A stretch of 34,536 nt of DNA, taken from a phage. Both the position numbers and the translations under genes were made by a program. Position 1 is the stretch's first letter. The number at the start of each line of letters is the position of its first letter. Below, in pieces: positions 15,291 through 25,466 of this stretch. Below the pieces are notes generated by a model. The model did not search any database. It had not been told where the DNA came from and saw nothing but the letters and a program-made list of their open reading frames with translations. The stretch lies in NCBI GenBank assembly GCA_012145005.1, contig GCA_012145005.1_3029.2; one strand, written 5' to 3'.

Positions 15291-15326
15291 TTCTGTATCA
15301 GTAGTTGATAGTTGTATAGTACCACA
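15291..15326 (-). repeat. dispersed promoter-leader repeat, copy 1 (motA)
   Basis: Minus strand GTGGTACTATACAACTATCAACTACTGATACAGAA. Confidence 0.6.
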
Positions 15327-15345
15327 GTATGCTTTGGTTGTAAAC
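15316..15345 (-). promoter_or_regulatory. early promoter for motA
   Basis: GTTTAC, 18-bp spacer, TGGTACTAT; directly downstream of a terminator hairpin. Confidence 0.65.
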
Positions 15346-15360
15346 CGTTTTGTGAAAAAA

Positions 15361-15394
15361 TTTTAAAATAAAAAGGGAGAGCCGAGGCTCTCCC
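15361..15394 (-). terminator. intrinsic terminator after the motA.1-position ORF
   Basis: Perfect 8-bp stem GGGAGAGC/GCTCTCCC, 4-nt loop, then UUUUUAUUUUAAAA on the minus-strand transcript. Confidence 0.65.
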
Positions 15395-15399
15395 TAAAA

Positions 15400-15549
15400 T
15401 TACTGCATGACTGTGATAACTGTCATGATAACACGTTGAATTCCGAACGCAAGAAGACCTCCTGCTACGGCTGGAACAACACCTAAACCCGTCAGTAAAA
15501 TGCTACCGGATACTAATGCAGCGCTTGTAATACCTATGAATGGACTCAT
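15400..15549 (-). CDS. small hydrophobic protein (49 aa; motA.1 position), not in ORF track
   Basis: ATG overlaps gene 52 stop (ATGA); MSPFIGITSAALVSGSILLTGLGVVPAVAGGLLAFGIQRVIMTVITVMQ; followed by an intrinsic terminator. Confidence 0.5.
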   Translation of the reverse strand: MSPFIGITSAALVSGSILLTGLGVVPAVAGGLLAFGIQRVIMTVITVMQ

Positions 15550-16874
15550 TTGATTTCCTCTAAATCTTTGGTGTATTCTGTAACTACATCAGTAGTTTTC
15601 CAATATTCGTTTTCTTCTTTTTTGGCTTTAGCTTCTTCAGCAAGTTTCTTCGCTTCATCGGAAGTCATATGAAAAATATTCATTCCGACTAGTTTATCAA
15701 CATAAGAAGAATACATATCAATTTTAGAAAGTTCTTCGGTCAGTTCTTTACGAGTTTTACCTTGTACAACAATTTCACCTGAAATTACTTTCTTAATGAA
15801 ATGTGCCTTGGCAAAGGCTAAACGAAATGCCGATTCAGTTTCTTTGATTTTGTTATCAATTCGTTTTTGGACATAAGTTTTACGAACTTCAACGAAGTCT
15901 TTGATTAAATCAACTACGTTATCGTAAACTTGTAGTTTTCCTTTCTCATTAATAACGGTAATATTCTGGGAACGACGCTCAATCAACCCGAAGTCTTTCA
16001 TAATTTTTGCATGGCGTTCTTCTTCGTTATCGCTCAAGGAATATTCTTTACGGAATTTAACTTTGAAGCCAAAACCATGCTCACCACAAGCATCATCCCA
16101 CGTAATGAAGCCTTTATCTTCAAGCGGGTCTAAGATTTTACTCACGTAAGTTTCACGATCATACTTATACGGAATCTCAGTGATATTCATTTGAGTTCGT
16201 GAAGTAAACTTGTACGTTCCACGAATTTCATATTGACCGTCAATTTCAACGACTTCACCACGAAATTCTGGGAATTCTACCTTCGGTTTAGTTACTTTCT
16301 TTCCTTGAAGAGCTTGTAATACAGCTTTCTTAACAGAAGAAACACTATGAGGAAGAATGTAAGTTGCATAACCAGTTGCAATACCGGAAACGCCATTAAG
16401 AAGAACAGTAGGAATAATAGGCAAATAGAAAGCAGGCGGAATGTGTTCTTTATCTTGATGTACTGGAGCATATTCAGTATCTTTATATACGTTATAGAAA
16501 TTTTTACTTACACGAGCAAAAATATAACGACTAGCTGCTGCCTTTTGGACAGTACGAGAACCGAAGTTTCCTTGACCATCTAACAAAGGAAAGTTATTAT
16601 TCCAAGTGTTAGCCATCAAAGCCCCCGCATCTTGTGCAGAGTTTTCACCATGGTGATATCCAAGGTCCGCTACACCACCTGCAATAGAAGCGAGTTTGTG
16701 AAACTTATCTTTATTTCCTCGTGCCAAATCAAGAGCTCGAGCAATAACAAATCGTTGAACTGGCTTAAATCCATCAATCATATTTGGAATAGCACGATTT
16801 TCAACCGTGTACATAGCATAAGCCAATGCTTCATTATCAATGATACTTTTTAAATCGCGATTATTCAGTTGCAT
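15546..16874 (-). CDS. 52: DNA topoisomerase II medium subunit gp52 (442 aa)
   Basis: MQLNNRDLKSIIDNEALAYAMYTVENRAIPNMIDGFKPVQRFV, GyrA-like breakage-reunion domain; recognised as T4 gp52. Confidence 0.9.
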   Translation of the reverse strand: MQLNNRDLKSIIDNEALAYAMYTVENRAIPNMIDGFKPVQRFVIARALDLARGNKDKFHKLASIAGGVADLGYHHGENSAQDAGALMANTWNNNFPLLDGQGNFGSRTVQKAAASRYIFARVSKNFYNVYKDTEYAPVHQDKEHIPPAFYLPIIPTVLLNGVSGIATGYATYILPHSVSSVKKAVLQALQGKKVTKPKVEFPEFRGEVVEIDGQYEIRGTYKFTSRTQMNITEIPYKYDRETYVSKILDPLEDKGFITWDDACGEHGFGFKVKFRKEYSLSDNEEERHAKIMKDFGLIERRSQNITVINEKGKLQVYDNVVDLIKDFVEVRKTYVQKRIDNKIKETESAFRLAFAKAHFIKKVISGEIVVQGKTRKELTEELSKIDMYSSYVDKLVGMNIFHMTSDEAKKLAEEAKAKKEENEYWKTTDVVTEYTKDLEEIK

Positions 16875-16878
16875 AAAT

Positions 16879-17019
16879 TTACCATACTAGTGAATGTAGT
16901 GCCATAATAACATCAGAAATGAAAAGCACGACTTGAATTAATCCAAACATTACTCCATAATATAGTGCTATTAATAAAATAGCAAGGGCTAATGAATAGC
17001 CCAAGATTTTCTTAATCAT
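16879..17019 (-). CDS. small membrane peptide (46 aa), not in ORF track
   Basis: ATG at 17019; MIKKILGYSLALAILLIALYYGVMFGLIQVVLFISDVLMALHSLVW; stop 5 nt before gene 52 ATG. Confidence 0.4.
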   Translation of the reverse strand: MIKKILGYSLALAILLIALYYGVMFGLIQVVLFISDVIMALHSLVW

Positions 17020-17170
17020 TAGTAGATAACAACACAAATGTTAAATATGCACACATACCCTGAGCTAAAGCTTGCGAAAACACACTGCTGGCATCAATAC
17101 AGATAGTTAAAACACATGCTACTATCCAACAAATAAATGAAATAACTCCTAATAATTTTGCAATATTCAT
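17012..17170 (-). CDS. ac: small membrane protein (52 aa), Ac-like (acriflavine-sensitivity position)
   Basis: Track ORF starts at TTG 17200; ATG at 17170 follows GAGGAG SD; MNIAKLLGVISFICWIVACVLTICIDASSVFSQALAQGMCAYLTFVLLSTND. Confidence 0.5.
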   Translation of the reverse strand: MNIAKLLGVISFICWIVACVLTICIDASSVFSQALAQGMCAYLTFVLLSTND

Positions 17171-17180
17171 AATATTCTCC

Positions 17181-17336
17181 TCAACTATTTTTAGAACCAA
17201 TGTACGCGAATAATGATAAAATCGCTAATACGCCCTGAGCTGATGCTTGCAAAAATACTGAAGTTTCTCCAGTTATTACTGTTCCGATGCATAAAAAGAA
17301 CCAACAGAAAAAGGCTATACCGTGAACAAATTTCAT
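17181..17336 (-). CDS. small membrane protein (51 aa), paralogue of the Ac-like ORF; not in ORF track
   Basis: ATG at 17336 with GAGGA SD; MKFVHGIAFFCWFFLCIGTVITGETSVFLQASAQGVLAILSLFAYIGSKNS. Confidence 0.45.
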   Translation of the reverse strand: MKFVHGIAFFCWFFLCIGTVITGETSVFLQASAQGVLAILSLFAYIGSKNS

Positions 17337-17343
17337 ATTTTCC

Positions 17344-17424
17344 TCACTGGCGTCCGAAGACGCCTTTGGTTTTAAGATTGTTACGATAGAACTGCATCAC
17401 ATGTTCGTTATGGAAATTACTCAT
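17344..17424 (-). CDS. stp: Stp peptide (26 aa)
   Basis: ATG overlaps ndd stop (TAATG); translation [26 protein letters not shown] recognised as T4 Stp; not in ORF track. Confidence 0.7.
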
Positions 17425-17882
17425 TAATATGCCTGCAAAACAAATTTAAAGTTATCAGCCAACATACGGTTCATTTCTTCAAGTGTTTGATACTCAGAAT
17501 GATGATTACGAGTAAACGCTAAAGCTAACTGACCTTTTCCAAATCCCGTCGTCAGAGGTTTCATCTTAGAAGCAGGCAGATAAAATACTGTATATGGAAC
17601 ATTGTTATTTGCAATAGTACGTGCAAGCTGAGACCGACGTTGACGAATATGACTTAGAACTGCGCTGAATCCTTGCTTAGAACGCTGATTACCTACATAA
17701 AATCGTGCAGACACACATGGATTACTAAATGGACGACCATCTAATTTACTCACTAAAAAGTAAAATCCAGGTTTAGATAAAATGTCTTTGTGTGGAGTTC
17801 CCAAAAACCACTCACCGCCCTTGATTGTACCAATAACAGTAGCGCCTGCATTATTCAGATCAGTAACAGTCATATATTTCAT
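17424..17882 (-). CDS. ndd: nucleoid disruption protein Ndd (152 aa)
   Basis: Track ORF has a 16-codon read-through extension; ATG at 17882 follows GAGGAAATTA; [35 protein letters not shown]. Confidence 0.8.
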
Positions 17883-17942
17883 ATTAATTTCCTCTAAATT
17901 ATTTTCTACTCCAAGGCCGCATGAATACACGCGGCCATTAAA

Positions 17943-18158
17943 TTAATCGTCGCAGTCGACGCTCAATTCCCAAAACTCTTCTACGGTATAAGTTTCAGTA
18001 TCATTTTCAATACAGAAACGTTCATTACTGTTATTTGTTAAAGTAGCATTAACTGTCGGTTTCTCGCTAGTGCTCTTAAGAGGTGAAATGCGAATTAACT
18101 GATCACCGTTATCTAAACAGAAAATTTCACCAACTTTTACATCTTTAAAGCTTTTCAT
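17943..18158 (-). CDS. hypothetical protein (71 aa)
   Basis: Track ORF upstream of ndd. Confidence 0.5.
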   Translation of the reverse strand: MKSFKDVKVGEIFCLDNGDQLIRISPLKSTSEKPTVNATLTNNSNERFCIENDTETYTVEEFWELSVDCDD

Positions 18159-18166
18159 AATTCACC

Positions 18167-18274
18167 TCAAGGAGTATAAAATCCAAATGCAGTTGTTGAC
18201 CATCCCATCCAATATGGAAAATTTGCACCAATGTAAAACATAAGAATATAAAACCAACCGCTCAGCAAATTCAT
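18167..18274 (-). CDS. small hydrophobic peptide (35 aa), not in ORF track
   Basis: ATG overlaps upstream stop (ATGA); MNLLSGWFYILMFYIGANFPYWMGWSTTAFGFYTP. Confidence 0.4.
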   Translation of the reverse strand: MNLLSGWFYILMFYIGANFPYWMGWSTTAFGFYTP

Positions 18275-18492
18275 CATTTTACACCATTCCAAATTGTTTC
18301 AACCACAGATTTTAAACCATTTTGATGAATATCCATTCCGACTACCGCCATCAAATAGATTCCAACTACAACTGAACCTAAGGCAAAAATCAGCATGAAA
18401 ATGAATAAAGCCGGAAAAATATTATCGAAAAACCATTCAATAAATGTAAAAGCACTACGTTTACGCTTCATATTTTCCTCACATAAATCCAA
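18274..18492 (-). CDS. small membrane protein (72 aa)
   Basis: Track ORF; hydrophobic core IFPALFIFMLIFALGSVVVGIYLMAVVG. Confidence 0.5.
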   Translation of the reverse strand: MDLCEENMKRKRSAFTFIEWFFDNIFPALFIFMLIFALGSVVVGIYLMAVVGMDIHQNGLKSVVETIWNGVK

Positions 18493-18592
18493 AATAAGCG
18501 TTTAATACATCAATCATTAAAACGATTGGGAATATACTCAAAACTATTAGTATTATAACTACATTCCATATAGCTTTAACAATCTTTTTCAT
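18479..18592 (-). CDS. small membrane peptide (37 aa)
   Basis: Track ORF 18479..18691 reads through an early promoter; ATG at 18592 follows GGAGGAACAGAAA; MKKIVKAIWNVVIILIVLSIFPIVLMIDVLNAYFGFM. Confidence 0.5.
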   Translation of the reverse strand: MKKIVKAIWNVVIILIVLSIFPIVLMIDVLNAYFGFM

Positions 18593-18602
18593 TTTCTGTT
18601 CC

Positions 18603-18630
18603 TCCGTAGTTGATAGGGTAATAGTACCAC
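18603..18630 (-). repeat. dispersed promoter-leader repeat, partial copy 4
   Basis: Minus strand GTGGTACTATTACCCTATCAACTACGGA. Confidence 0.4.
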
Positions 18631-18650
18631 GGAAGAACAGTCTTGTAAAC
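18621..18650 (-). promoter_or_regulatory. early promoter for ORF 18479..18592
   Basis: GTTTAC, 18-bp spacer, TGGTACTAT. Confidence 0.55.
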
Positions 18651-18659
18651 AACTTTTTT

Positions 18660-18758
18660 TTAAAAATATTCGTAATAAATGTGAATACCAACTACTACCG
18701 CTGAAACCTGTGCAACCCACCACGCACAAGCAATAAGTACAGAATTCAAAATTTTCAT
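18660..18758 (-). CDS. small hydrophobic peptide (32 aa), not in ORF track
   Basis: ATG overlaps upstream stop (ATGA); MKILNSVLIACAWWVAQVSAVVVGIHIYYEYF. Confidence 0.35.
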   Translation of the reverse strand: MKILNSVLIACAWWVAQVSAVVVGIHIYYEYF

Positions 18759-18841
18759 AATAACCTCATTACAAAAGTAAATGTTAAACAAATTAATGGA
18801 ATACTAATTAACCAAACAAAACACCACCATAATGAACTCAT
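18755..18841 (-). CDS. small hydrophobic peptide (28 aa), not in ORF track
   Basis: MSSLWWCFVWLISIPLICLTFTFVMRLL; stop overlaps next ATG. Confidence 0.35.
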   Translation of the reverse strand: MSSLWWCFVWLISIPLICLTFTFVMRLL

Positions 18842-18869
18842 AGTTCAATCTCAACGATTTTCATTTTAC

Positions 18870-19076
18870 TCAATAATCCGCTAAAAGATCGACGATTGCA
18901 TCACGAAGACACTTATTCGCAATACGTTTAAGAGCAATTTCAGTTTCTGGAGCATTTTGAATAATCATTGAATTCAATTCAGCCTCAGCAAACTGAAGTT
19001 CTTTAACTAATTCAGCTTTATATTTTCCTTGCCCTTTCTTAGCTTTTGCTCGTTTTAATTCAGCTGTAGTAAACAT
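18870..19076 (-). CDS. hypothetical protein (68 aa)
   Basis: Track ORF 18870..19175 reads through an early promoter; ATG at 19076 follows GGAGAATAAA; MFTTAELKRAKAKKGQGKYKAELVKELQFAEAELN. Confidence 0.55.
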   Translation of the reverse strand: MFTTAELKRAKAKKGQGKYKAELVKELQFAEAELNSMIIQNAPETEIALKRIANKCLRDAIVDLLADY

Positions 19077-19090
19077 TTTATTCTCCAAAT

Positions 19091-19120
19091 CCGTATCAGT
19101 TGATAGTTGTATATTACCAC
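19091..19120 (-). repeat. dispersed promoter-leader repeat, copy 2
   Basis: Minus strand GTGGTAATATACAACTATCAACTGATACGG. Confidence 0.6.
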
Positions 19121-19140
19121 AGTCCTTGTGGTATGTAAAC
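19111..19140 (-). promoter_or_regulatory. early promoter for ORF 18870..19076
   Basis: GTTTAC, 18-bp spacer, TGGTAATAT. Confidence 0.6.
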
Positions 19141-19156
19141 CGTTTTGTGAAAATTT

Positions 19157-19714
19157 TTAAATGGAAAGATACCATCCGTTGTAGTTGCTTTTTCTTACAA
19201 CCTTACGAAGGTCTTCTCTGTCACCGATGAACTTCGGAGTGTACTGGATGACACCTGGATGAATTTCTTTAGTGTTGAATATAATTATACAGTCAGCGAC
19301 TTGATGATTTAGAATGGGCCCTAGATTTATTCCAGAACCATATGGATACTCTCCGCTGCATCCCGTTGTTACCGAAATCCAACGCGAGTCAGTTTGATGT
19401 GTCTTAACTTCTACACGAAGCCCGCAGTATCTTGGATGCGCCAATACATCCCATGCGTATGTATACGGGTCATTAACGTCCTCTTGGCCTTTGTTAACAT
19501 ACCCGCTTAGCCAATCTGCTACAAAAAACTCTGCGTACACCGCGATACGGCATCTTTCGATAACTTCTGCTTTATCCTGGTTCGGGTTTTGTTTTAAAGA
19601 GTATCTTGCTGTATCAGCAATTTTGACCTTCATTTCACTAGTCAAATCACTGTTCGATAGGGTAAATGTCGGAATCTGAAATAGTCTCTGTAAACCCGGA
19701 TTCGTTTTCTGCAT
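19157..19714 (-). CDS. denB: endonuclease IV DenB (185 aa)
   Basis: ATG at 19714 with AGGAAA SD; size and position between rIIB and ndd match T4 DenB. Confidence 0.75.
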   Translation of the reverse strand: MQKTNPGLQRLFQIPTFTLSNSDLTSEMKVKIADTARYSLKQNPNQDKAEVIERCRIAVYAEFFVADWLSGYVNKGQEDVNDPYTYAWDVLAHPRYCGLRVEVKTHQTDSRWISVTTGCSGEYPYGSGINLGPILNHQVADCIIIFNTKEIHPGVIQYTPKFIGDREDLRKVVRKSNYNGWYLSI

Positions 19715-19976
19715 TTAGACTTTCCTTTTTACCGCTGAGATAAGCGTTATATACTTTAAGAGTGCCGTAATAAATTCGGTCATTTTCATCTAAAGACTCA
19801 CGGTCAAGTTCATCGAGTTCCTTTTTATCCATGACTATAACATCATTGCAATAAAGAAACCCAAGTTTTTCGTGTCCAAACTCAAATTTATTACAGTACA
19901 CAATATTAGCGTGATGATTACCATGTAGAGAAATTTCTTTTATGTCGGAATCACCGATATTCATACAATAAATCAT
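19647..19976 (-). CDS. hypothetical protein (109 aa)
   Basis: ATG at 19976 with AAGGTGA SD; 3' end overlaps denB start by 68 nt out of frame. Confidence 0.5.
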   Translation of the reverse strand: MIYCMNIGDSDIKEISLHGNHHANIVYCNKFEFGHEKLGFLYCNDVIVMDKKELDELDRESLDENDRIYYGTLKVYNAYLSGKKESLNAENESGFTETISDSDIYPIEQ

Positions 19977-19993
19977 AATTCACCTTAAAACAA

Positions 19994-20009
19994 AAGGGCC
20001 GAAGCCCTT
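19994..20009 (-). terminator. UUCG-tetraloop hairpin after ORF 20013..20207, U-rich on both sides
   Basis: AAGGGC-UUCG-GCCCUU on minus transcript followed by UUUUGUUUU; plus strand also followed by TTATTTTATTT. Confidence 0.5.
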
Positions 20010-20012
20010 ATT

Positions 20013-20207
20013 TTATTTGAATTGTGCAATTCTTTTCTCTAGACACTCAGCATAAGATTTCATTGAGATGAACTGTGAAAGCAGCAGTTCTTGCTCAACT
20101 GCACTAACCGTTAGAAACTTTGCGCTTTCTAAAAATTTGCTCAGTGCATTAATTTTGAGCATTAATTGATCGTATTCTTCTTTTACTCGTGCTTGATAAC
20201 CTAACAT
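20013..20207 (-). CDS. hypothetical protein (64 aa), predicted helical
   Basis: ATG at 20207 with AAGGAAA SD; bracketed by two identical UUCG hairpins. Confidence 0.55.
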   Translation of the reverse strand: MLGYQARVKEEYDQLMLKINALSKFLESAKFLTVSAVEQELLLSQFISMKSYAECLEKRIAQFK

Positions 20208-20221
20208 AATTTTCCTTAGTT

Positions 20222-20237
20222 AAGGGCCGAAGCCCTT
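20222..20237 (-). other. UUCG-tetraloop hairpin between rIIB and ORF 20013..20207
   Basis: Same AAGGGC-UUCG-GCCCUU sequence as at 19994; overlaps rIIB stop; no U-run on the minus strand. Confidence 0.45.
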
Positions 20238-21174
20238 ATTTAAATTGTTCAGTAACGTCTTCAATTACTTCGTATTGGCAGGTACGCATTTTAGCGTCGT
20301 TGTAATCAATCGGAATTGATACTACATCACGAGGATGAACTTTAACTTTTACAACTCGGCTGGTTGAACCACCGAAGTGACGAATATAAGATTTAGAACA
20401 CACATGCAGACCACGAGAACAAGTTTGTGTATCATCGTCATTCACACGAGTACGCGGCATTTTAACTACTTTACCAGGACTGTTATCAAAGGTATTTGAG
20501 TGACAGTCAAAGTAATTGCTGCGAACTACTTTCCAAGCATAGAAGTAACCATCTTCTGTAATTTCAATATCGTTTGCTACCAAGAAATCAAAAAGTCGAG
20601 ATACCGCTTTCTGGCTTGGGTTTTCCAGCAGATTTTCCAAGAACGGAAAATAAAATTCAAAGTTTTCGCCTTTTTCCATCGAATCAAGAATACGATCAAC
20701 CAAACCAGACCGCAATTCAATATTTTGATAGAATAAGCTTCCACCTTCAATTCGAACATCGCCGGAAATATATTTTTCAACAGCGCGACGAACATTAATT
20801 TTTTGTGCCGCTTCTTCCAGCTTATCCGCTACAAGCAGATTGAGAATTTCCTGGAAGTTTGAATGAGTATTAGGCGTTGCATTATAAGTTACACCATCGA
20901 CAGTAATCGAAATGAATTTTTTAGATGCATTCCAAATAATGTCAGATTTAGTAACTGGAGCAATAACTGCATCGCTATTAACTTTAACTGTAATATCACC
21001 GCTAATAGTAACTTTAGGGCGTTTAGCTTCTTCAGCATTTTTCAAAACACGACGGATTGTATCAACCGATACATCTTGCCAATCAGCCAATTCCTGCTGA
21101 GTATAATTACCGCTTGAATACAGTTTAACAATTTCAGCTTGTTCGTTTTTGGTCAGGCATTTAATATTGTACAT
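20236..21174 (-). CDS. rIIB: rIIB protein (312 aa)
   Basis: Size, position adjacent to rIIA, N-terminus MYNIKCLTKNEQAEIVKLYSSGNYTQQELADWQDVSVDTIRRVLKN. Confidence 0.9.
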   Translation of the reverse strand: MYNIKCLTKNEQAEIVKLYSSGNYTQQELADWQDVSVDTIRRVLKNAEEAKRPKVTISGDITVKVNSDAVIAPVTKSDIIWNASKKFISITVDGVTYNATPNTHSNFQEILNLLVADKLEEAAQKINVRRAVEKYISGDVRIEGGSLFYQNIELRSGLVDRILDSMEKGENFEFYFPFLENLLENPSQKAVSRLFDFLVANDIEITEDGYFYAWKVVRSNYFDCHSNTFDNSPGKVVKMPRTRVNDDDTQTCSRGLHVCSKSYIRHFGGSTSRVVKVKVHPRDVVSIPIDYNDAKMRTCQYEVIEDVTEQFK

Positions 21175-23602: not shown

Positions 23603-23632
23603 ATTATACCACATCCTTGTGGTAAAGTAAAC
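23603..23632 (-). promoter_or_regulatory. early promoter for rIIA.1-position ORF and rIIA
   Basis: GTTTAC overlapping the gene 39 stop, 18-bp spacer, TGGTATAAT. Confidence 0.6.
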
Positions 23633-25449
23633 TACTGGCTCATCCATTCTTTACGAAGGTCAGCATTATCTCCCATGAGCATTTCAAAAAGCTCTTTCCA
23701 ATTCTCAGGAAGTTTAACAACATCATATACTGGATTTTGAATCATCTCACGATATTCAGATTTTTCCAAAGAGCCAAGTCCTTTAATATAACGGATGCTA
23801 TGTTTAGGTAGAGCATCTTTGGCACTCTCATATTCAGCGACTGTATAAAACCATTCTTGTTTTTTACCGACCTGAGCGATGATTACAGGAGTTTTGACAA
23901 AGCGAATTCGTCCTTGCTCAAACAGTTCTGGCCAATTACTAAAAAATCCGAGCAGAGAAGGATAAATGCTTCCTAGACCATCATGGTCAGCATCAGTCAT
24001 AATAGCAATATTATGATAATTCAAGTTTTCGGCTTTTTCACCAAGAACTAATCCAGTGATTGCGCAAATATCAAACAGTTCTTTGTTTTTAAGCATATCA
24101 GCATATGACATACCCCAACTGTTGAGAACTTTACCACGCAATGGATAACCACCGTGAAGTTCTTTATCACGAACATCAATAAGATATCCGATAGCAGAAT
24201 CACCCTCAGTCAAGAAAAGAGTCGTGTCAGCATCTTTACCACAAAGATTCGCTTTAATGTGTTTATGAACCTTAGCTTTAGAAGCCTTTTTAGCTGCTTT
24301 AGTTTCTGCTGCTTTTTCTGCCGCCAATTTACGAGCCAAGGCAGCTTCAATAATTGGCATTAAAATTGCTTCATTGTTTAAAATGGCGCGCGAAATCTTT
24401 TTAGCATCAAGCTGAATATGACTACGAATTTCACCAAATGGAGAAGTCAAACGCTCTTTAGTTTGAGAATCAAATCGCATGTTTTTCATATCACGAACAA
24501 ACATGACGATAGTCAAACATTCTTTAACACGTGCTTTAGTTACATCAATTTTGAACTTACGTTTGATTTGTGGAATAAGGTCTTCACAAATATCATCCAT
24601 AACACAGTCAATGTGATGACCACCATTCTTAGTATGAATGTTATTAACGTATGTTAATTGACGAAAACCATCCGGTGAACGACCAACCGCAATAGAACAA
24701 TTTTCTTGTTCTTGAACAATAGCATGCTCATCATATTGGCGTGCATATTTCTTAAAATTACCCTGAACCTTTTTACCATTAAAGGTAAATTGAATATCAG
24801 GATAAACTACTGCAAGTGTCTGGAGACGATCCAGTGTAATGTCAAGATAAACCTGAGACAGCTCATTAGTTTCAAATGACATAAAATCAGGAATGAAAGT
24901 AACACGAGTTCCTTTCCATTTTCCAGGAATATCTTCCCATGATTTATTTTCCATGCCATTTGAACAACGAACTACAATATTATTTTGACCATCGCCAGTT
25001 TCACCAACAAACATTACAGAAAAAATGTTAGTTAAACTAGAACCAACACCGTTCATACCACCAGTGACGCGTTCTTTATCATCACCGAAGTTACCACCTG
25101 CTTTTGGAATAGTCCAGGCAGCAACAGGACCAGGAATTTCTTCGCCGGTAGGTGTTTTAACCATCGCTTGTGGAATACCGCGACCGTTATCTTCAACTGT
25201 TACTTGATTGTTTTTGATAGTAACATTAATTTTATTCGCGAATTTAAACTTAGTACGAATACCTTCATCTACTGAGTTATCGATAATTTCATCAATAAGC
25301 TTAACAAGACCAGGTACATACTGAACACTTTCCCATTTACCAAACAGAAAGCGCTCATGCATTTCATTAGCAGAAGAGCCAATATACATGCCGCTACGCT
25401 TTTTGATATGTTCAATATCGCTCAGAATTTTAATTTCATTCTTAATCAT
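23632..25449 (-). CDS. 39: DNA topoisomerase II large subunit gp39, uninterrupted form (605 aa)
   Basis: Track start is GTG at 25452; ATG at 25449 follows GAGGA; MIKNEIKILSDIEHIKKRSGMYIGS; GyrB-like ATPase and Toprim (EGDSA) in one reading frame. Confidence 0.9.
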   Translation of the reverse strand: MIKNEIKILSDIEHIKKRSGMYIGSSANEMHERFLFGKWESVQYVPGLVKLIDEIIDNSVDEGIRTKFKFANKINVTIKNNQVTVEDNGRGIPQAMVKTPTGEEIPGPVAAWTIPKAGGNFGDDKERVTGGMNGVGSSLTNIFSVMFVGETGDGQNNIVVRCSNGMENKSWEDIPGKWKGTRVTFIPDFMSFETNELSQVYLDITLDRLQTLAVVYPDIQFTFNGKKVQGNFKKYARQYDEHAIVQEQENCSIAVGRSPDGFRQLTYVNNIHTKNGGHHIDCVMDDICEDLIPQIKRKFKIDVTKARVKECLTIVMFVRDMKNMRFDSQTKERLTSPFGEIRSHIQLDAKKISRAILNNEAILMPIIEAALARKLAAEKAAETKAAKKASKAKVHKHIKANLCGKDADTTLFLTEGDSAIGYLIDVRDKELHGGYPLRGKVLNSWGMSYADMLKNKELFDICAITGLVLGEKAENLNYHNIAIMTDADHDGLGSIYPSLLGFFSNWPELFEQGRIRFVKTPVIIAQVGKKQEWFYTVAEYESAKDALPKHSIRYIKGLGSLEKSEYREMIQNPVYDVVKLPENWKELFEMLMGDNADLRKEWMSQ

Positions 25450-25466
25450 CACTTATCCTCGTTTGG

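Follow-up and report, generated by a model that had tools for sequence, protein, structure and literature searches.

Small hydrophobic peptide genes of the early block between denB and gene 52 in a T4-like phage

Gene content and junctions of the interval between denB and gene 52

The window analysed here (34,536 nucleotides) belongs to a T4-like phage of the genus Tequatrovirus, and its closest match is Shigella phage ESh33 (98% DNA identity). An earlier note had described a chain of at least eight tiny-peptide ORFs, coupled and mostly of membrane type, between denB and gene 52. The eight that it sized all lie there on the minus strand, and the ORF map, a shuffle test, pN/pS and hydropathy bear the description out. 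They are the annotated T4-family genes ndd.6, ndd.5, ndd.4, a 65-aa ndd.2a (DUF7248), ndd.2, two copies of ac, and 52.1 (DUF7396).

Read in the direction of transcription, with every feature on the minus strand, the region opens at the denB end with an early-promoter cassette (19098-19161) that is 81% identical to a copy upstream of motA (15303-15366). It is followed by an RB32ORF266c-like gene (18870-19076) encoding a soluble, lysine-rich protein of 68 aa, and by a mini-ORF of 8 codons, MKIVEIEL (18838-18864), which consists of the start and the last 8 codons of an RB14-type ORF269c fused together and whose stop overlaps the ndd.6 start (ATGA). The ndd.6 gene (18755-18841, 28 aa) has a weak Shine-Dalgarno (SD) of its own and overlaps ndd.5 (18660-18758, 32 aa), again by ATGA; both encode single-span peptides. 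In Ndd.5 there is a lipobox-like LIAC at residues 8-11, but the hydrophobic stretch before it is very short for a lipoprotein. A second early-promoter cassette (18608-18671; GTTTACA, 17 nt, TG-TACTAT) occupies the gap between ndd.5 and ndd.4 (18479-18592), the latter specifying 37 aa with a single span and a basic N-terminus. The long ndd.2a (18274-18471) starts at an ATG with a GAGGA Shine-Dalgarno and gives 65 aa, and its end overlaps ndd.2 (18167-18277, 36 aa, or 35 from the second ATG). Most peptide sizes given in the earlier note hold, except that its 72-aa product, which needs the upstream TTG at 18492, is the 65-aa protein, and that its 35 aa for ndd.2 counts from the second ATG.

Farther along lie ndd.1 (17943-18158; 71 aa, acidic and soluble), a G+C-rich 9-bp RNA hairpin (17915-17936; -19.4 kcal/mol, z -3.5) with no U-tract after it, ndd for the soluble nucleoid disruption protein (17424-17882, 152 aa), and stp (17344-17424), whose soluble 26-aa product is identical to T4 Stp. 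The two Ac-family genes come next: a paralogue of 51 aa (17181-17336), which is a one-gene cassette absent from T4 and RB14 and is 43% identical to the other copy, and the orthologue of T4 ac (17012-17170, 52 aa, 96% identity to T4 Ac). The interval closes with 52.1 (16879-17019, 46 aa), and beyond it gene 52 for the topoisomerase II medium subunit (15546-16874) runs into motA.1 (15400-15549), so named in the T4 annotation, whose 49-aa hydrophobic product extends the chain past the stretch that the earlier note had marked. A search of 16500-19400 against Rfam at E<=1 gave no match.

Examination of the junctions revealed five overlaps (ATGA at ndd.6/ndd.5, ndd.2a/ndd.2 and 52/motA.1, TAATG at ndd/stp, and 8 nt at ac/52.1) and five short gaps of 7, 8, 7, 10 and 4 nt. 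The Shine-Dalgarno lies over the upstream stop codon in four of these short gaps, while the 4-nt junction between 52.1 and gene 52 has no evident one. There are two long gaps, one of 67 nt with the early promoter and one of 60 nt, between ndd.1 and ndd, with the hairpin. The genes are thus packed very tightly, but the ATGA and TAATG overlaps said to link most of the genes are a minority of the junctions, the rest being mostly gaps of 4-10 nt. A weak or missing Shine-Dalgarno was found for 52.1, ndd.2, ndd.6 and gene 52. With downstream genes packed so tightly, ribosomes could pass from frame to frame. Early-promoter-like cassettes lie within the block at ~19139 and ~18649; counting the copy before motA, the window holds three copies of this cassette of ~64 nt, which flank sub-blocks of the region, and no stem-loop was found beside the two promoters inside the block.

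Coding status and membrane character of the peptides

The tiny hydrophobic frames are genuine genes under purifying selection. When ORFs of at least 26 aa with an ATG and an SD-like sequence were collected, the minus strand of the region yielded nine, which occupied 72% of that strand and included six small hydrophobic ones, while 500 dinucleotide shuffles gave on average 1.55 ORFs, 0.28 small hydrophobic ones and 8% coverage (maximum 35%). A codon model trained on the long genes of the window preferred the annotated frame in 10 of 12 genes; for ndd.6 the annotated frame was not the best. Among close relatives pN/pS was 0.07-0.30, with small counts per gene (for ndd.5, 4 synonymous against 2 non-synonymous changes) and pairwise comparisons that are not independent of one another. 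An IMG/VR search with Ndd as anchor brought up no more than five loci, all nearly identical, and for this reason an annotated phage collection was used for comparison. Four further genera were compared, represented by Gaprivervirus, Mosigvirus, a Klebsiella T4-like phage and Winklervirus: homologues of Ndd.4, the DUF7248 protein, Ac and 52.1 were detectable in three or four of them, and those of Ndd.6 in two. The homologues in other genera are intact, those of ndd.6 included.

Profile searches corroborate these assignments. All the peptides match PHROG families (E 1e-17 to 1e-30); Ndd.6, Ndd.5, Ndd.4 and Ndd.2 are full-length matches to phrog_8851, 5011, 3098 and 4135 (E 3e-17 to 4e-26), and their position between denB and ndd is syntenic with T4 and RB14. 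Pfam families were found for two peptides, any other match at E<=1 being at chance level: 52.1 matches DUF7396 (PF24129) over its full length with 80.1 bits, and the ndd.2a product matches DUF7248 (PF23906) over residues 6-63 with 71.9 bits, the gathering cut-off being 27 in both cases. A search of nine peptides against NCBIfam gave no match, and comparison of 52.1, Ac and DUF7248 with PDB sequences brought up no meaningful one. In an all-against-all comparison of the peptides the two Ac copies were the only related pair, the others not being mutual paralogues. In T4, 52.1, ac, stp and ndd.2 to ndd.6 all have transcripts of the early class (PMC9697503 Table S2), while the time-resolved proteome records no protein for any of the tiny peptides (Class_P = NA; PMC9697503), so that translation is inferred except for Ac and Stp, for which there is genetics.

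Membrane insertion and topology were read from hydropathy and AlphaFold2. The best 19-residue Kyte-Doolittle mean was 2.15-3.06 in seven of the eight peptides, with uncharged runs of 21-31 aa. Ndd.2, which reached only 1.17, lacks charged residues altogether and has many aromatics and glycines. The model of the Ac paralogue has helices at residues 2-22 and 27-50 (pLDDT 81.6). The earlier note had called almost all the peptides single transmembrane helices, and seven of the eight do have a hydrophobic span of sufficient length for the bilayer, but the Ac proteins are predicted two-helix hairpins and Ndd.2 is weakly hydrophobic. Hydrophobic spans, charge distribution and helical models agree with membrane character, and the peptides are most likely accessory early peptides predicted to insert into the host inner membrane.

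Comparison with T4 and its relatives, and the Ac pair

The T4 (NC_000866) and RB14 annotations match the genes of the window one-to-one: ndd.2, ndd.2a/ndd.3, ndd.4, ndd.5, ndd.6, ac, 52.1 and motA.1 have the same order, strand and junctions, share 95-100% amino-acid identity and belong to the same PHROG and Pfam families. T4 differs in having neither the second Ac paralogue nor the ORF266c gene, and RB14 in having ORF269c, of which the window keeps only the 8-codon remnant. In addition, the T4 reference sequence has lost 1 nt from the second codon of ndd.2a, which accounts for its separate ndd.3 and ndd.2a annotations, whereas the 65-aa DUF7248 gene of the window is intact. In its product an N-terminal KRKR precedes a single hydrophobic span (residues 17-46), and the C-terminal motif GLKSVVExIWNG is conserved in four other genera.

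That the region varies among T-even phages, as the earlier note held, is confirmed by the gene content, which differs between T4, RB14, T2 and the window, and an exchange of the ndd.4/.5 cassette at the same locus has been published (PMC4122927). The breakpoints of the two resolved indels (the Ac paralogue and ORF269c) lie in short repeats around ribosome-binding sites (RBS) and start codons, not in the promoter cassettes. Compared with the PeSL cassettes of T4-type hyperplastic regions (Arbiol 2010; Comeau 2014, PMC4122927), the promoter part is alike, with its three copies of ~64 nt, but no stem-loop adjoins the two internal promoters and both indels break elsewhere.

Both Ac copies match phrog_2501 along their whole length (E 4.9e-26 and 3.7e-25); a Pfam search with them gave no match, while other family members carry PF26944. 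An alignment of 22 family members shows W12, T19, V27, Q30, Q34 and G35 to be invariant, and both copies retain all six, including the glycine changed in the G38R mutant of Ac; a polar, conserved loop links the two predicted hydrophobic helices. The tandem arrangement is a minority one, found in 51 of the 559 phage records that matched, and Ac alleles of close phages share 40-80% identity. Homologues of Ac and DUF7248 were found in T4-like phage contexts only, and bacteria therefore offer no functional hint. The copy at 17012-17170 resembles T4 Ac and T2 pr (PF26944, phrog_2501) in identity and in its predicted hairpin; the window differs in its two divergent tandem copies, and the acridine phenotype is known for T4 Ac only. 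T4 Ac sensitises infected or Ac-expressing cells to acridines and acriflavine, and G38R abolishes the acriflavine effect and gives resistance (bioRxiv 10.1101/2025.06.30.662393). The same preprint, which covered genes of 93-100% identity and did not discuss the tandem arrangement, is the one source of the proposal that Ac may block AcrAB-TolC efflux. The host-transporter-targeting function suggested in the earlier note agrees with this current, unproven hypothesis (bioRxiv 10.1101/2025.06.30.662393; PMC13250531).

If that proposal is right, Ac would share with AcrZ both a size of ~50 aa and a place in the membrane at AcrAB-TolC. AcrZ is an E. coli inner-membrane peptide of 49 aa that binds AcrB; it is a single helix that modulates the pump, while Ac is a predicted hairpin proposed to inhibit it. 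The two have no sequence relationship, as a search of all PDB chains with Ac, in a set that includes AcrZ-containing pump structures, found nothing at E<=10.

Function of the block

The region from 52 to rIIB was described earlier as holding hydrophobic, predicted membrane proteins, and its deletion in sa-delta-9 lowers the yield to ~50% and removes the T4 stimulation of phospholipid and phosphatidylglycerol synthesis, a phenotype so far mapped to the deletion as a whole, in which denB also lies (PMC6071114). A deletion from 52.1 to rIIB is viable (PMC9712115). By these published deletions, T4 requires the block as a whole to stimulate host phospholipid synthesis but can grow without it on laboratory strains. 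With CRISPRi-ART all genes of the block were scored 'Not Fit', knockdown having no fitness effect, while gene 52 was 'Fit', and knockdown at the 52.1 start left the phage unimpaired (PMC11879866).

We consider it very probable that the peptide chain is the long-annotated, dispensable early-gene block of T4-like phages (ndd.2 to ndd.6, ac and 52.1), lying between gene 52 and denB/rIIB. Its peptides of 28-65 aa represent seven unrelated conserved families (Ndd.6, Ndd.5, Ndd.4, DUF7248, Ndd.2, Ac in two copies, and 52.1/DUF7396), with MotA.1 following gene 52 and the soluble take-over proteins Ndd, Stp, Ndd.1 and ORF266c interspersed. Judging from the sequence, the two promoters would produce two polycistronic early transcripts, the peptides would enter the cytoplasmic membrane of the host within minutes of the start of infection, and each may tune some host envelope function. 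A phenotype is known for Ac alone, which causes acridine sensitivity, most likely by obstructing AcrAB-TolC, as has been proposed in print. Single-gene cassettes probably enter and leave by recombination between the short RBS/start repeats and the repeated promoter cassettes.

A reading that overlaps with this one, and that we regard as rather unlikely, is that the peptides act in defence conflicts, neutralising, or being sensed by, membrane-associated abortive-infection or exclusion systems of the host or a prophage, on the model of their operon-mate Stp against EcoprrI/PrrC. The neighbourhood (stp, rIIA/rIIB, arn, denB), the gain and loss of cassettes, the strong divergence of Ac copies and alleles, and the lack of a fitness effect in a defence-poor laboratory host, which is how conditional genes would behave, fit such a role; yet none of the peptides is known to interact with a defence system, and the sole known phenotype, that of Ac, is drug accumulation and not immunity. 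A function in superinfection exclusion or in lysis timing as antiholin-like peptides, also raised in the earlier note, is improbable and found no supporting evidence. Small single-span early membrane peptides are typical of such factors, the block adjoins rIIB/rIIA, and T4 Imm, Sp and RI are likewise small early membrane or periplasmic phage proteins, but no sequence similarity was detected between these three and the block peptides, and no peptide had Pfam similarity to such families at E<=1. The T4 genes for exclusion (imm and sp) and for lysis inhibition (rI, rIII and t) lie in other parts of the genome, and the block is not known to have an exclusion or lysis phenotype. The papers on whole-block deletions mention no rapid-lysis or exclusion defects, traits that were not specifically assayed there (PMC6071114, PMC9712115).

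The remaining two explanations set the peptides themselves aside. In one, translation acts in cis: ribosomes would be handed on from frame to frame of the early polycistronic mRNA, which they would protect from Rho or RNases, and would so reach the SD-less genes (52.1, ndd.2, ndd.6 and gene 52), with peptide sequence secondary. Starts that lack an SD are found at stop-start overlaps, T4 and RB14 retain the 8-codon relay mini-ORF ahead of ndd.6 as the window does, and knockdowns are without phenotype (PMC11879866). Nevertheless, this is a very improbable account: amino-acid sequence is far better conserved than synonymous sites, family motifs persist across genera (GLKSVVExIWNG, the invariant Q..QG of Ac, and LFISDVI), the missense G38R removes the Ac phenotype, and knockdown at the 52.1 start is harmless even though gene 52 is 'Fit' (PMC11879866). 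That the frames are chance ORFs in A+T-rich DNA is extremely unlikely. ORFs of 20-40 aa do abound in all frames of the window, and the proteomic and codon-model results for the peptides and ndd.6 point the same way, but the shuffle test, a pN/pS well below 1, intact homologues in other genera and curated Pfam and PHROG families all argue against it.

Taken together, these results place the peptides in a block that, having long been annotated between denB and gene 52, is ordinary for a T4-like phage; the finding is already known, as every peptide is an annotated T4-family gene. We tentatively entertain the possibility that the array serves as a set of peptide 'plugs', with a different host inner-membrane machine as the target of each. 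The Ac paralogues would then differ in the RND efflux pump, or the pump allele, on which they act, DUF7248 would bind a specific partner through a conserved periplasmic GLKSVVExIWNG tail, and one of the uncharacterised peptides would be the long-sought determinant of phosphatidylglycerol stimulation by T4. This idea stems from existing hypotheses and is not revealed by the window. Small phage peptides that target host membrane machines currently attract interest as antibacterial leads and as inhibitors of efflux pumps. The window contributes no new type of element; it offers three modest leads, namely a natural two-allele Ac pair suited to tests of pump specificity, an intact 65-aa DUF7248 gene that should become the reference form instead of the split ndd.3/ndd.2a of T4, and clean cases in which single-gene cassettes were gained or lost at RBS repeats.

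Identity and coding status of the peptide genes

The 2.4 kb around the finding matched 573 phage records, nearly all Tequatrovirus (T4-like). The closest was Shigella phage ESh33 (98% over the full length), so, judged by sequence, the window is a T4 relative rather than T4 itself. The minus strand carries all genes of the region, and the window coordinates of genes, promoters and hairpins given here, apart from those between 19994 and 20247, are those of minus-strand features. The earlier note had described at least eight tiny hydrophobic, coupled peptide ORFs between denB and gene 52 (16879-18841). Comparison with the annotation of the T4 reference, RB14, and ESh33 revealed that each of the eight is a named gene: 52.1 (16879-17019, 46 aa), ac (17012-17170, 52 aa, 96% identical to T4 Ac), a second Ac-family gene (17181-17336, 51 aa), ndd.2 (18167-18277, 36 aa), the long form of ndd.2a, here called the DUF7248 gene (18274-18471, 65 aa), ndd.4 (18479-18592, 37 aa), ndd.5 (18660-18758, 32 aa), and ndd.6 (18755-18841, 28 aa). 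The earlier reading of the DUF7248 protein as 72 aa starts at a TTG further upstream; a start at 18471, where an ATG follows a GAGGA Shine-Dalgarno (SD) sequence, agrees with the RB14 annotation. Every peptide matched a PHROG family (E 1e-17 to 1e-30), and Pfam assigned the 65-aa protein to DUF7248 and 52.1 to DUF7396, both well over the cut-offs. Soluble proteins (Stp, Ndd, Ndd.1, and an RB32ORF266c-like protein) are interspersed among the peptides. Nearby, a 109-aa RB32ORF268c-like ORF (19647-19976), with no equivalent in the T4 annotation, overlaps the denB start. Beyond rIIA, a 606-aa ORF (23632-25452) may encode an unsplit topoisomerase large subunit, which in T4 is split between genes 39 and 60.

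Short hydrophobic ORFs are abundant in A+T-rich DNA (dozens, in all frames), and we therefore counted only ORFs of 26 codons or more whose ATG follows an SD-like motif. Nine minus-strand ORFs passed this filter and together covered 72% of the stretch; six were small and hydrophobic. By comparison, 500 dinucleotide-preserving shuffles gave means of 1.55 ORFs, 0.28 small hydrophobic ORFs, and 8% coverage (maximum 35%); the opposite strand had two ORFs, none small and hydrophobic, and 12% coverage. When codon usage was modeled on 17 long genes from the window, the annotated frame scored best of all six in 10 of 12 genes; it did not for ndd.6 and stp, the latter an experimentally established gene. 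Pooled pN/pS against nine close relatives, from small counts and non-independent comparisons, was 0.07 for DUF7248, 0.08 for ac, 0.13 for ndd.5 and ndd.6, 0.17 for ndd.2, 0.19 for 52.1, and 0.30 for ndd.4; it was 0.05 for ndd, and the direction was uniform across all peptides tested. That the ORFs arose by chance in A+T-rich DNA and are not genes is excluded.

Gene packing, promoters, and RNA hairpins

Stop-start overlaps join ndd.6/ndd.5 (ATGA), DUF7248/ndd.2 (ATGA), ndd/stp (TAATG), ac/52.1 (8 nt), and 52/motA.1 (ATGA). At gaps of 7, 8, 7, and 10 nt, the upstream stop is covered by the SD (TGAGGA...), and 52.1 and gene 52 are 4 nt apart, with no evident SD at their junction. The starts that lack a clear SD (52.1, ndd.2, ndd.6, and gene 52) are those that overlap or closely abut an upstream stop. 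What looks like a 28-nt gap ahead of ndd.6 is a mini-ORF of eight codons, MKIVEIEL (18838-18864), with a stop that overlaps the ndd.6 ATG. It consists of an RB14-type ORF269c start fused to the last eight codons of ORF269c, the remnant of a deletion between two AAATGAAA repeats, and T4 retains it, preceded by a strong SD (GGAG). The chain extends beyond the interval of the earlier note: motA.1 (15400-15549), a very hydrophobic, glycine-/alanine-rich protein of 49 aa, is ATGA-coupled to the gene 52 stop, so that gene 52 has a coupled small ORF of membrane type on either side.

Three early-promoter cassettes of roughly 64 nt, with a mutual identity of 61-81%, lie upstream of motA (15303-15366), upstream of ndd.4 in a 67-nt gap (18608-18671; GTTTACA, 17 nt, TG-TACTAT), and at the denB end upstream of the RB32ORF266c-like gene (19098-19161). 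In each, A/T-rich upstream sequence is combined with GTTTAC, an extended -10, and a leader in which ACAACTATCAACT is conserved. Three stable RNA hairpins occur in the 60-nt gap between ndd.1 and ndd (17915-17936; 9-bp stem, -19.4 kcal/mol, z -3.5), in the stp 3' end directly ahead of the following gene's SD (17349-17364; UUCG tetraloop, z -4.0), and near the 52.1 start (16986-17002; z -2.4). This anatomy fits two early polycistronic units with a putative ribosome relay. Separately, a hairpin element of the form GGGC-loop-GCCC (AAGGGCCGAAGCCCTT, plus-strand reading) is present twice, at 19994-20019 and 20222-20247, with 92% identity between the copies, which adjoin the stops of rIIB and a denB.1-like ORF (20013-20207).

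Membrane character and variation among relatives

The earlier note's description of almost all the peptides as single transmembrane helices was approximately right. Ndd.6, Ndd.5, Ndd.4, DUF7248, and 52.1 contain a single uncharged stretch apiece, 21-31 residues long (best 19-residue hydropathy 2.2-3.1), and AlphaFold2 modeled DUF7248 as a short N-terminal helix and a single long helix (19-64; pLDDT 80.5). The basic N-termini of Ndd.4, DUF7248, and 52.1 suggest, by the positive-inside rule, an N-in orientation. The exceptions are the Ac proteins, with two hydrophobic segments each (AlphaFold2 helices 2-22 and 27-50 from a 22-member alignment, pLDDT 81.6), and the uncharged, aromatic- and glycine-rich Ndd.2, which is not a clear transmembrane helix (best 19-residue hydropathy 1.17).

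We read the interval in Gaprivervirus (VR26, UPEC01), Mosigvirus (SA79RD), the Klebsiella T4-like phage Roth20, and Winklervirus (Kc304), and in each, hydrophobic ORFs of 29-68 aa again follow one another around ndd. Families recognizable in three or four of the four genera sampled are Ndd.4 (MKK..KAIWN...), DUF7248 (C-terminal GLKSVVExIWNG almost invariant), Ac (loop TGETSVFxQAxAQG), and 52.1 (LFISDVI); Ndd.6 is recognizable in two of them. Loss of the frames in close relatives, named in the earlier note as evidence that would count against it, was found as strain-specific cases only. In the window and RB14, among others, the 65-aa DUF7248 gene is intact; in T4 a 1-nt deletion in codon 2 has led to separate annotations of "ndd.3" and "ndd.2a" (L001, T4 NC_000866, 4549-4629 and 4433-4555), "ndd.3" being an out-of-frame reading, which the CRISPRi-ART table lists as a PHROG singleton. 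A few other records have truncated forms of 40-44 aa. In T2 (AP018813), ac and the DUF7248 gene are both interrupted by in-frame stops, and the annotation shows no gene between ndd and gene 52; the ac stop is consistent with that noted for the T2 reference (bioRxiv 10.1101/2025.06.30.662393, the Ac preprint).

In Shigella phage Sf25 gp120 (62 aa; precomputed Pfam PF26889 and PF23906), the N-terminal half of Ndd.4 is naturally fused to the C-terminal half of DUF7248, which implies an in-frame deletion joining two neighboring genes. An annotated 52-aa ORF of UPEC01 (L010, 2877-3035) combines a 26-residue hydrophobic N-terminal stretch with a Stp homologue, which points either to a start called too far upstream or to a variant of Stp anchored in the membrane. 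VR26 (L009, 3193-3357), Roth20 (L011, 2788-2961), and Kc304 (L014, 2638-2811) have, immediately after ndd in the place of stp/ac, one family of 54-57-aa two-segment hydrophobic peptides unrelated to Ac.

The second Ac-family gene lies between stp and ac and is 43% identical to ac. Of 559 matching phage records, 51 have such a pair; most phages carry a single copy. The insert is exactly one gene plus its ribosome-binding site, flanked by TGAGGAnAAT..ATGAA repeats. In RB33, RB51, RB68, and T4_ev151, the annotated ac at the locus is an allele 70-88% identical to the extra copy. Among 5.8 billion proteins, a profile search recovered no more than 26 Ac clusters, all in T4-like phage contexts. In an alignment of 22 family members, six positions are invariant, including the glycine corresponding to T4 G38. 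The Ac preprint analyzed only ac genes of 93-100% identity, and paralogues are unmentioned there.

Possible roles of the peptides

In T4, early transcripts were reported for 52.1, ac, stp, and ndd.2 to ndd.6, whose proteins went undetected while Ndd and Ndd.1 were detected (PMC9697503, Table S2). CRISPRi-ART scored knockdown of each gene "Not Fit" and of gene 52 "Fit" (PMC11879866, supplement), and a re-created 3,254-bp 52.1-rIIB deletion is viable (PMC9712115). The sa-delta-9 deletion, covering 52.1, ac, stp, ndd, ndd.1-ndd.6, and denB, gives ~50% yield and abolishes the T4 stimulation of phospholipid synthesis, notably of phosphatidylglycerol; its authors note a presumed membrane location for several products of the interval (PMC6071114). 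Expression of Ac sensitizes E. coli to acriflavine, and ac deletion or G38R makes T4 acriflavine-resistant (Ac preprint); that Ac blocks AcrAB-TolC is a proposal made there and repeated in PMC13250531. Also at this locus, swapping of ndd.4/.5 for other ORFs via promoter/stem-loop cassettes has been reported (PMC4122927).

That the peptide genes are real, early-transcribed, and membrane-type is established or strongly supported; we infer the membrane insertion of the peptides, their targets, and coupling. The best-supported explanation is that accessory early peptides would enter the host inner membrane, where each would alter an envelope function, and Ac acting on drug efflux is its only worked example; the lipid phenotype is known for the deleted interval as a whole. 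A purely cis role, with the ORFs serving as a ribosome relay, is contradicted by amino-acid-level conservation and the Ac missense phenotype. Counter-defense roles are plausible, given the neighborhood, cassette turnover, and allelic divergence, and are compatible with the envelope explanation. The superinfection-exclusion or antiholin roles raised in the earlier note found no support. What the window newly adds for work on the functions of the peptides is only a natural two-allele Ac pair. The observation of the earlier note was confirmed with corrections and its interpretation supported in part; all essentials of the block are already present in the T4 annotation and discussed in the T4 literature.
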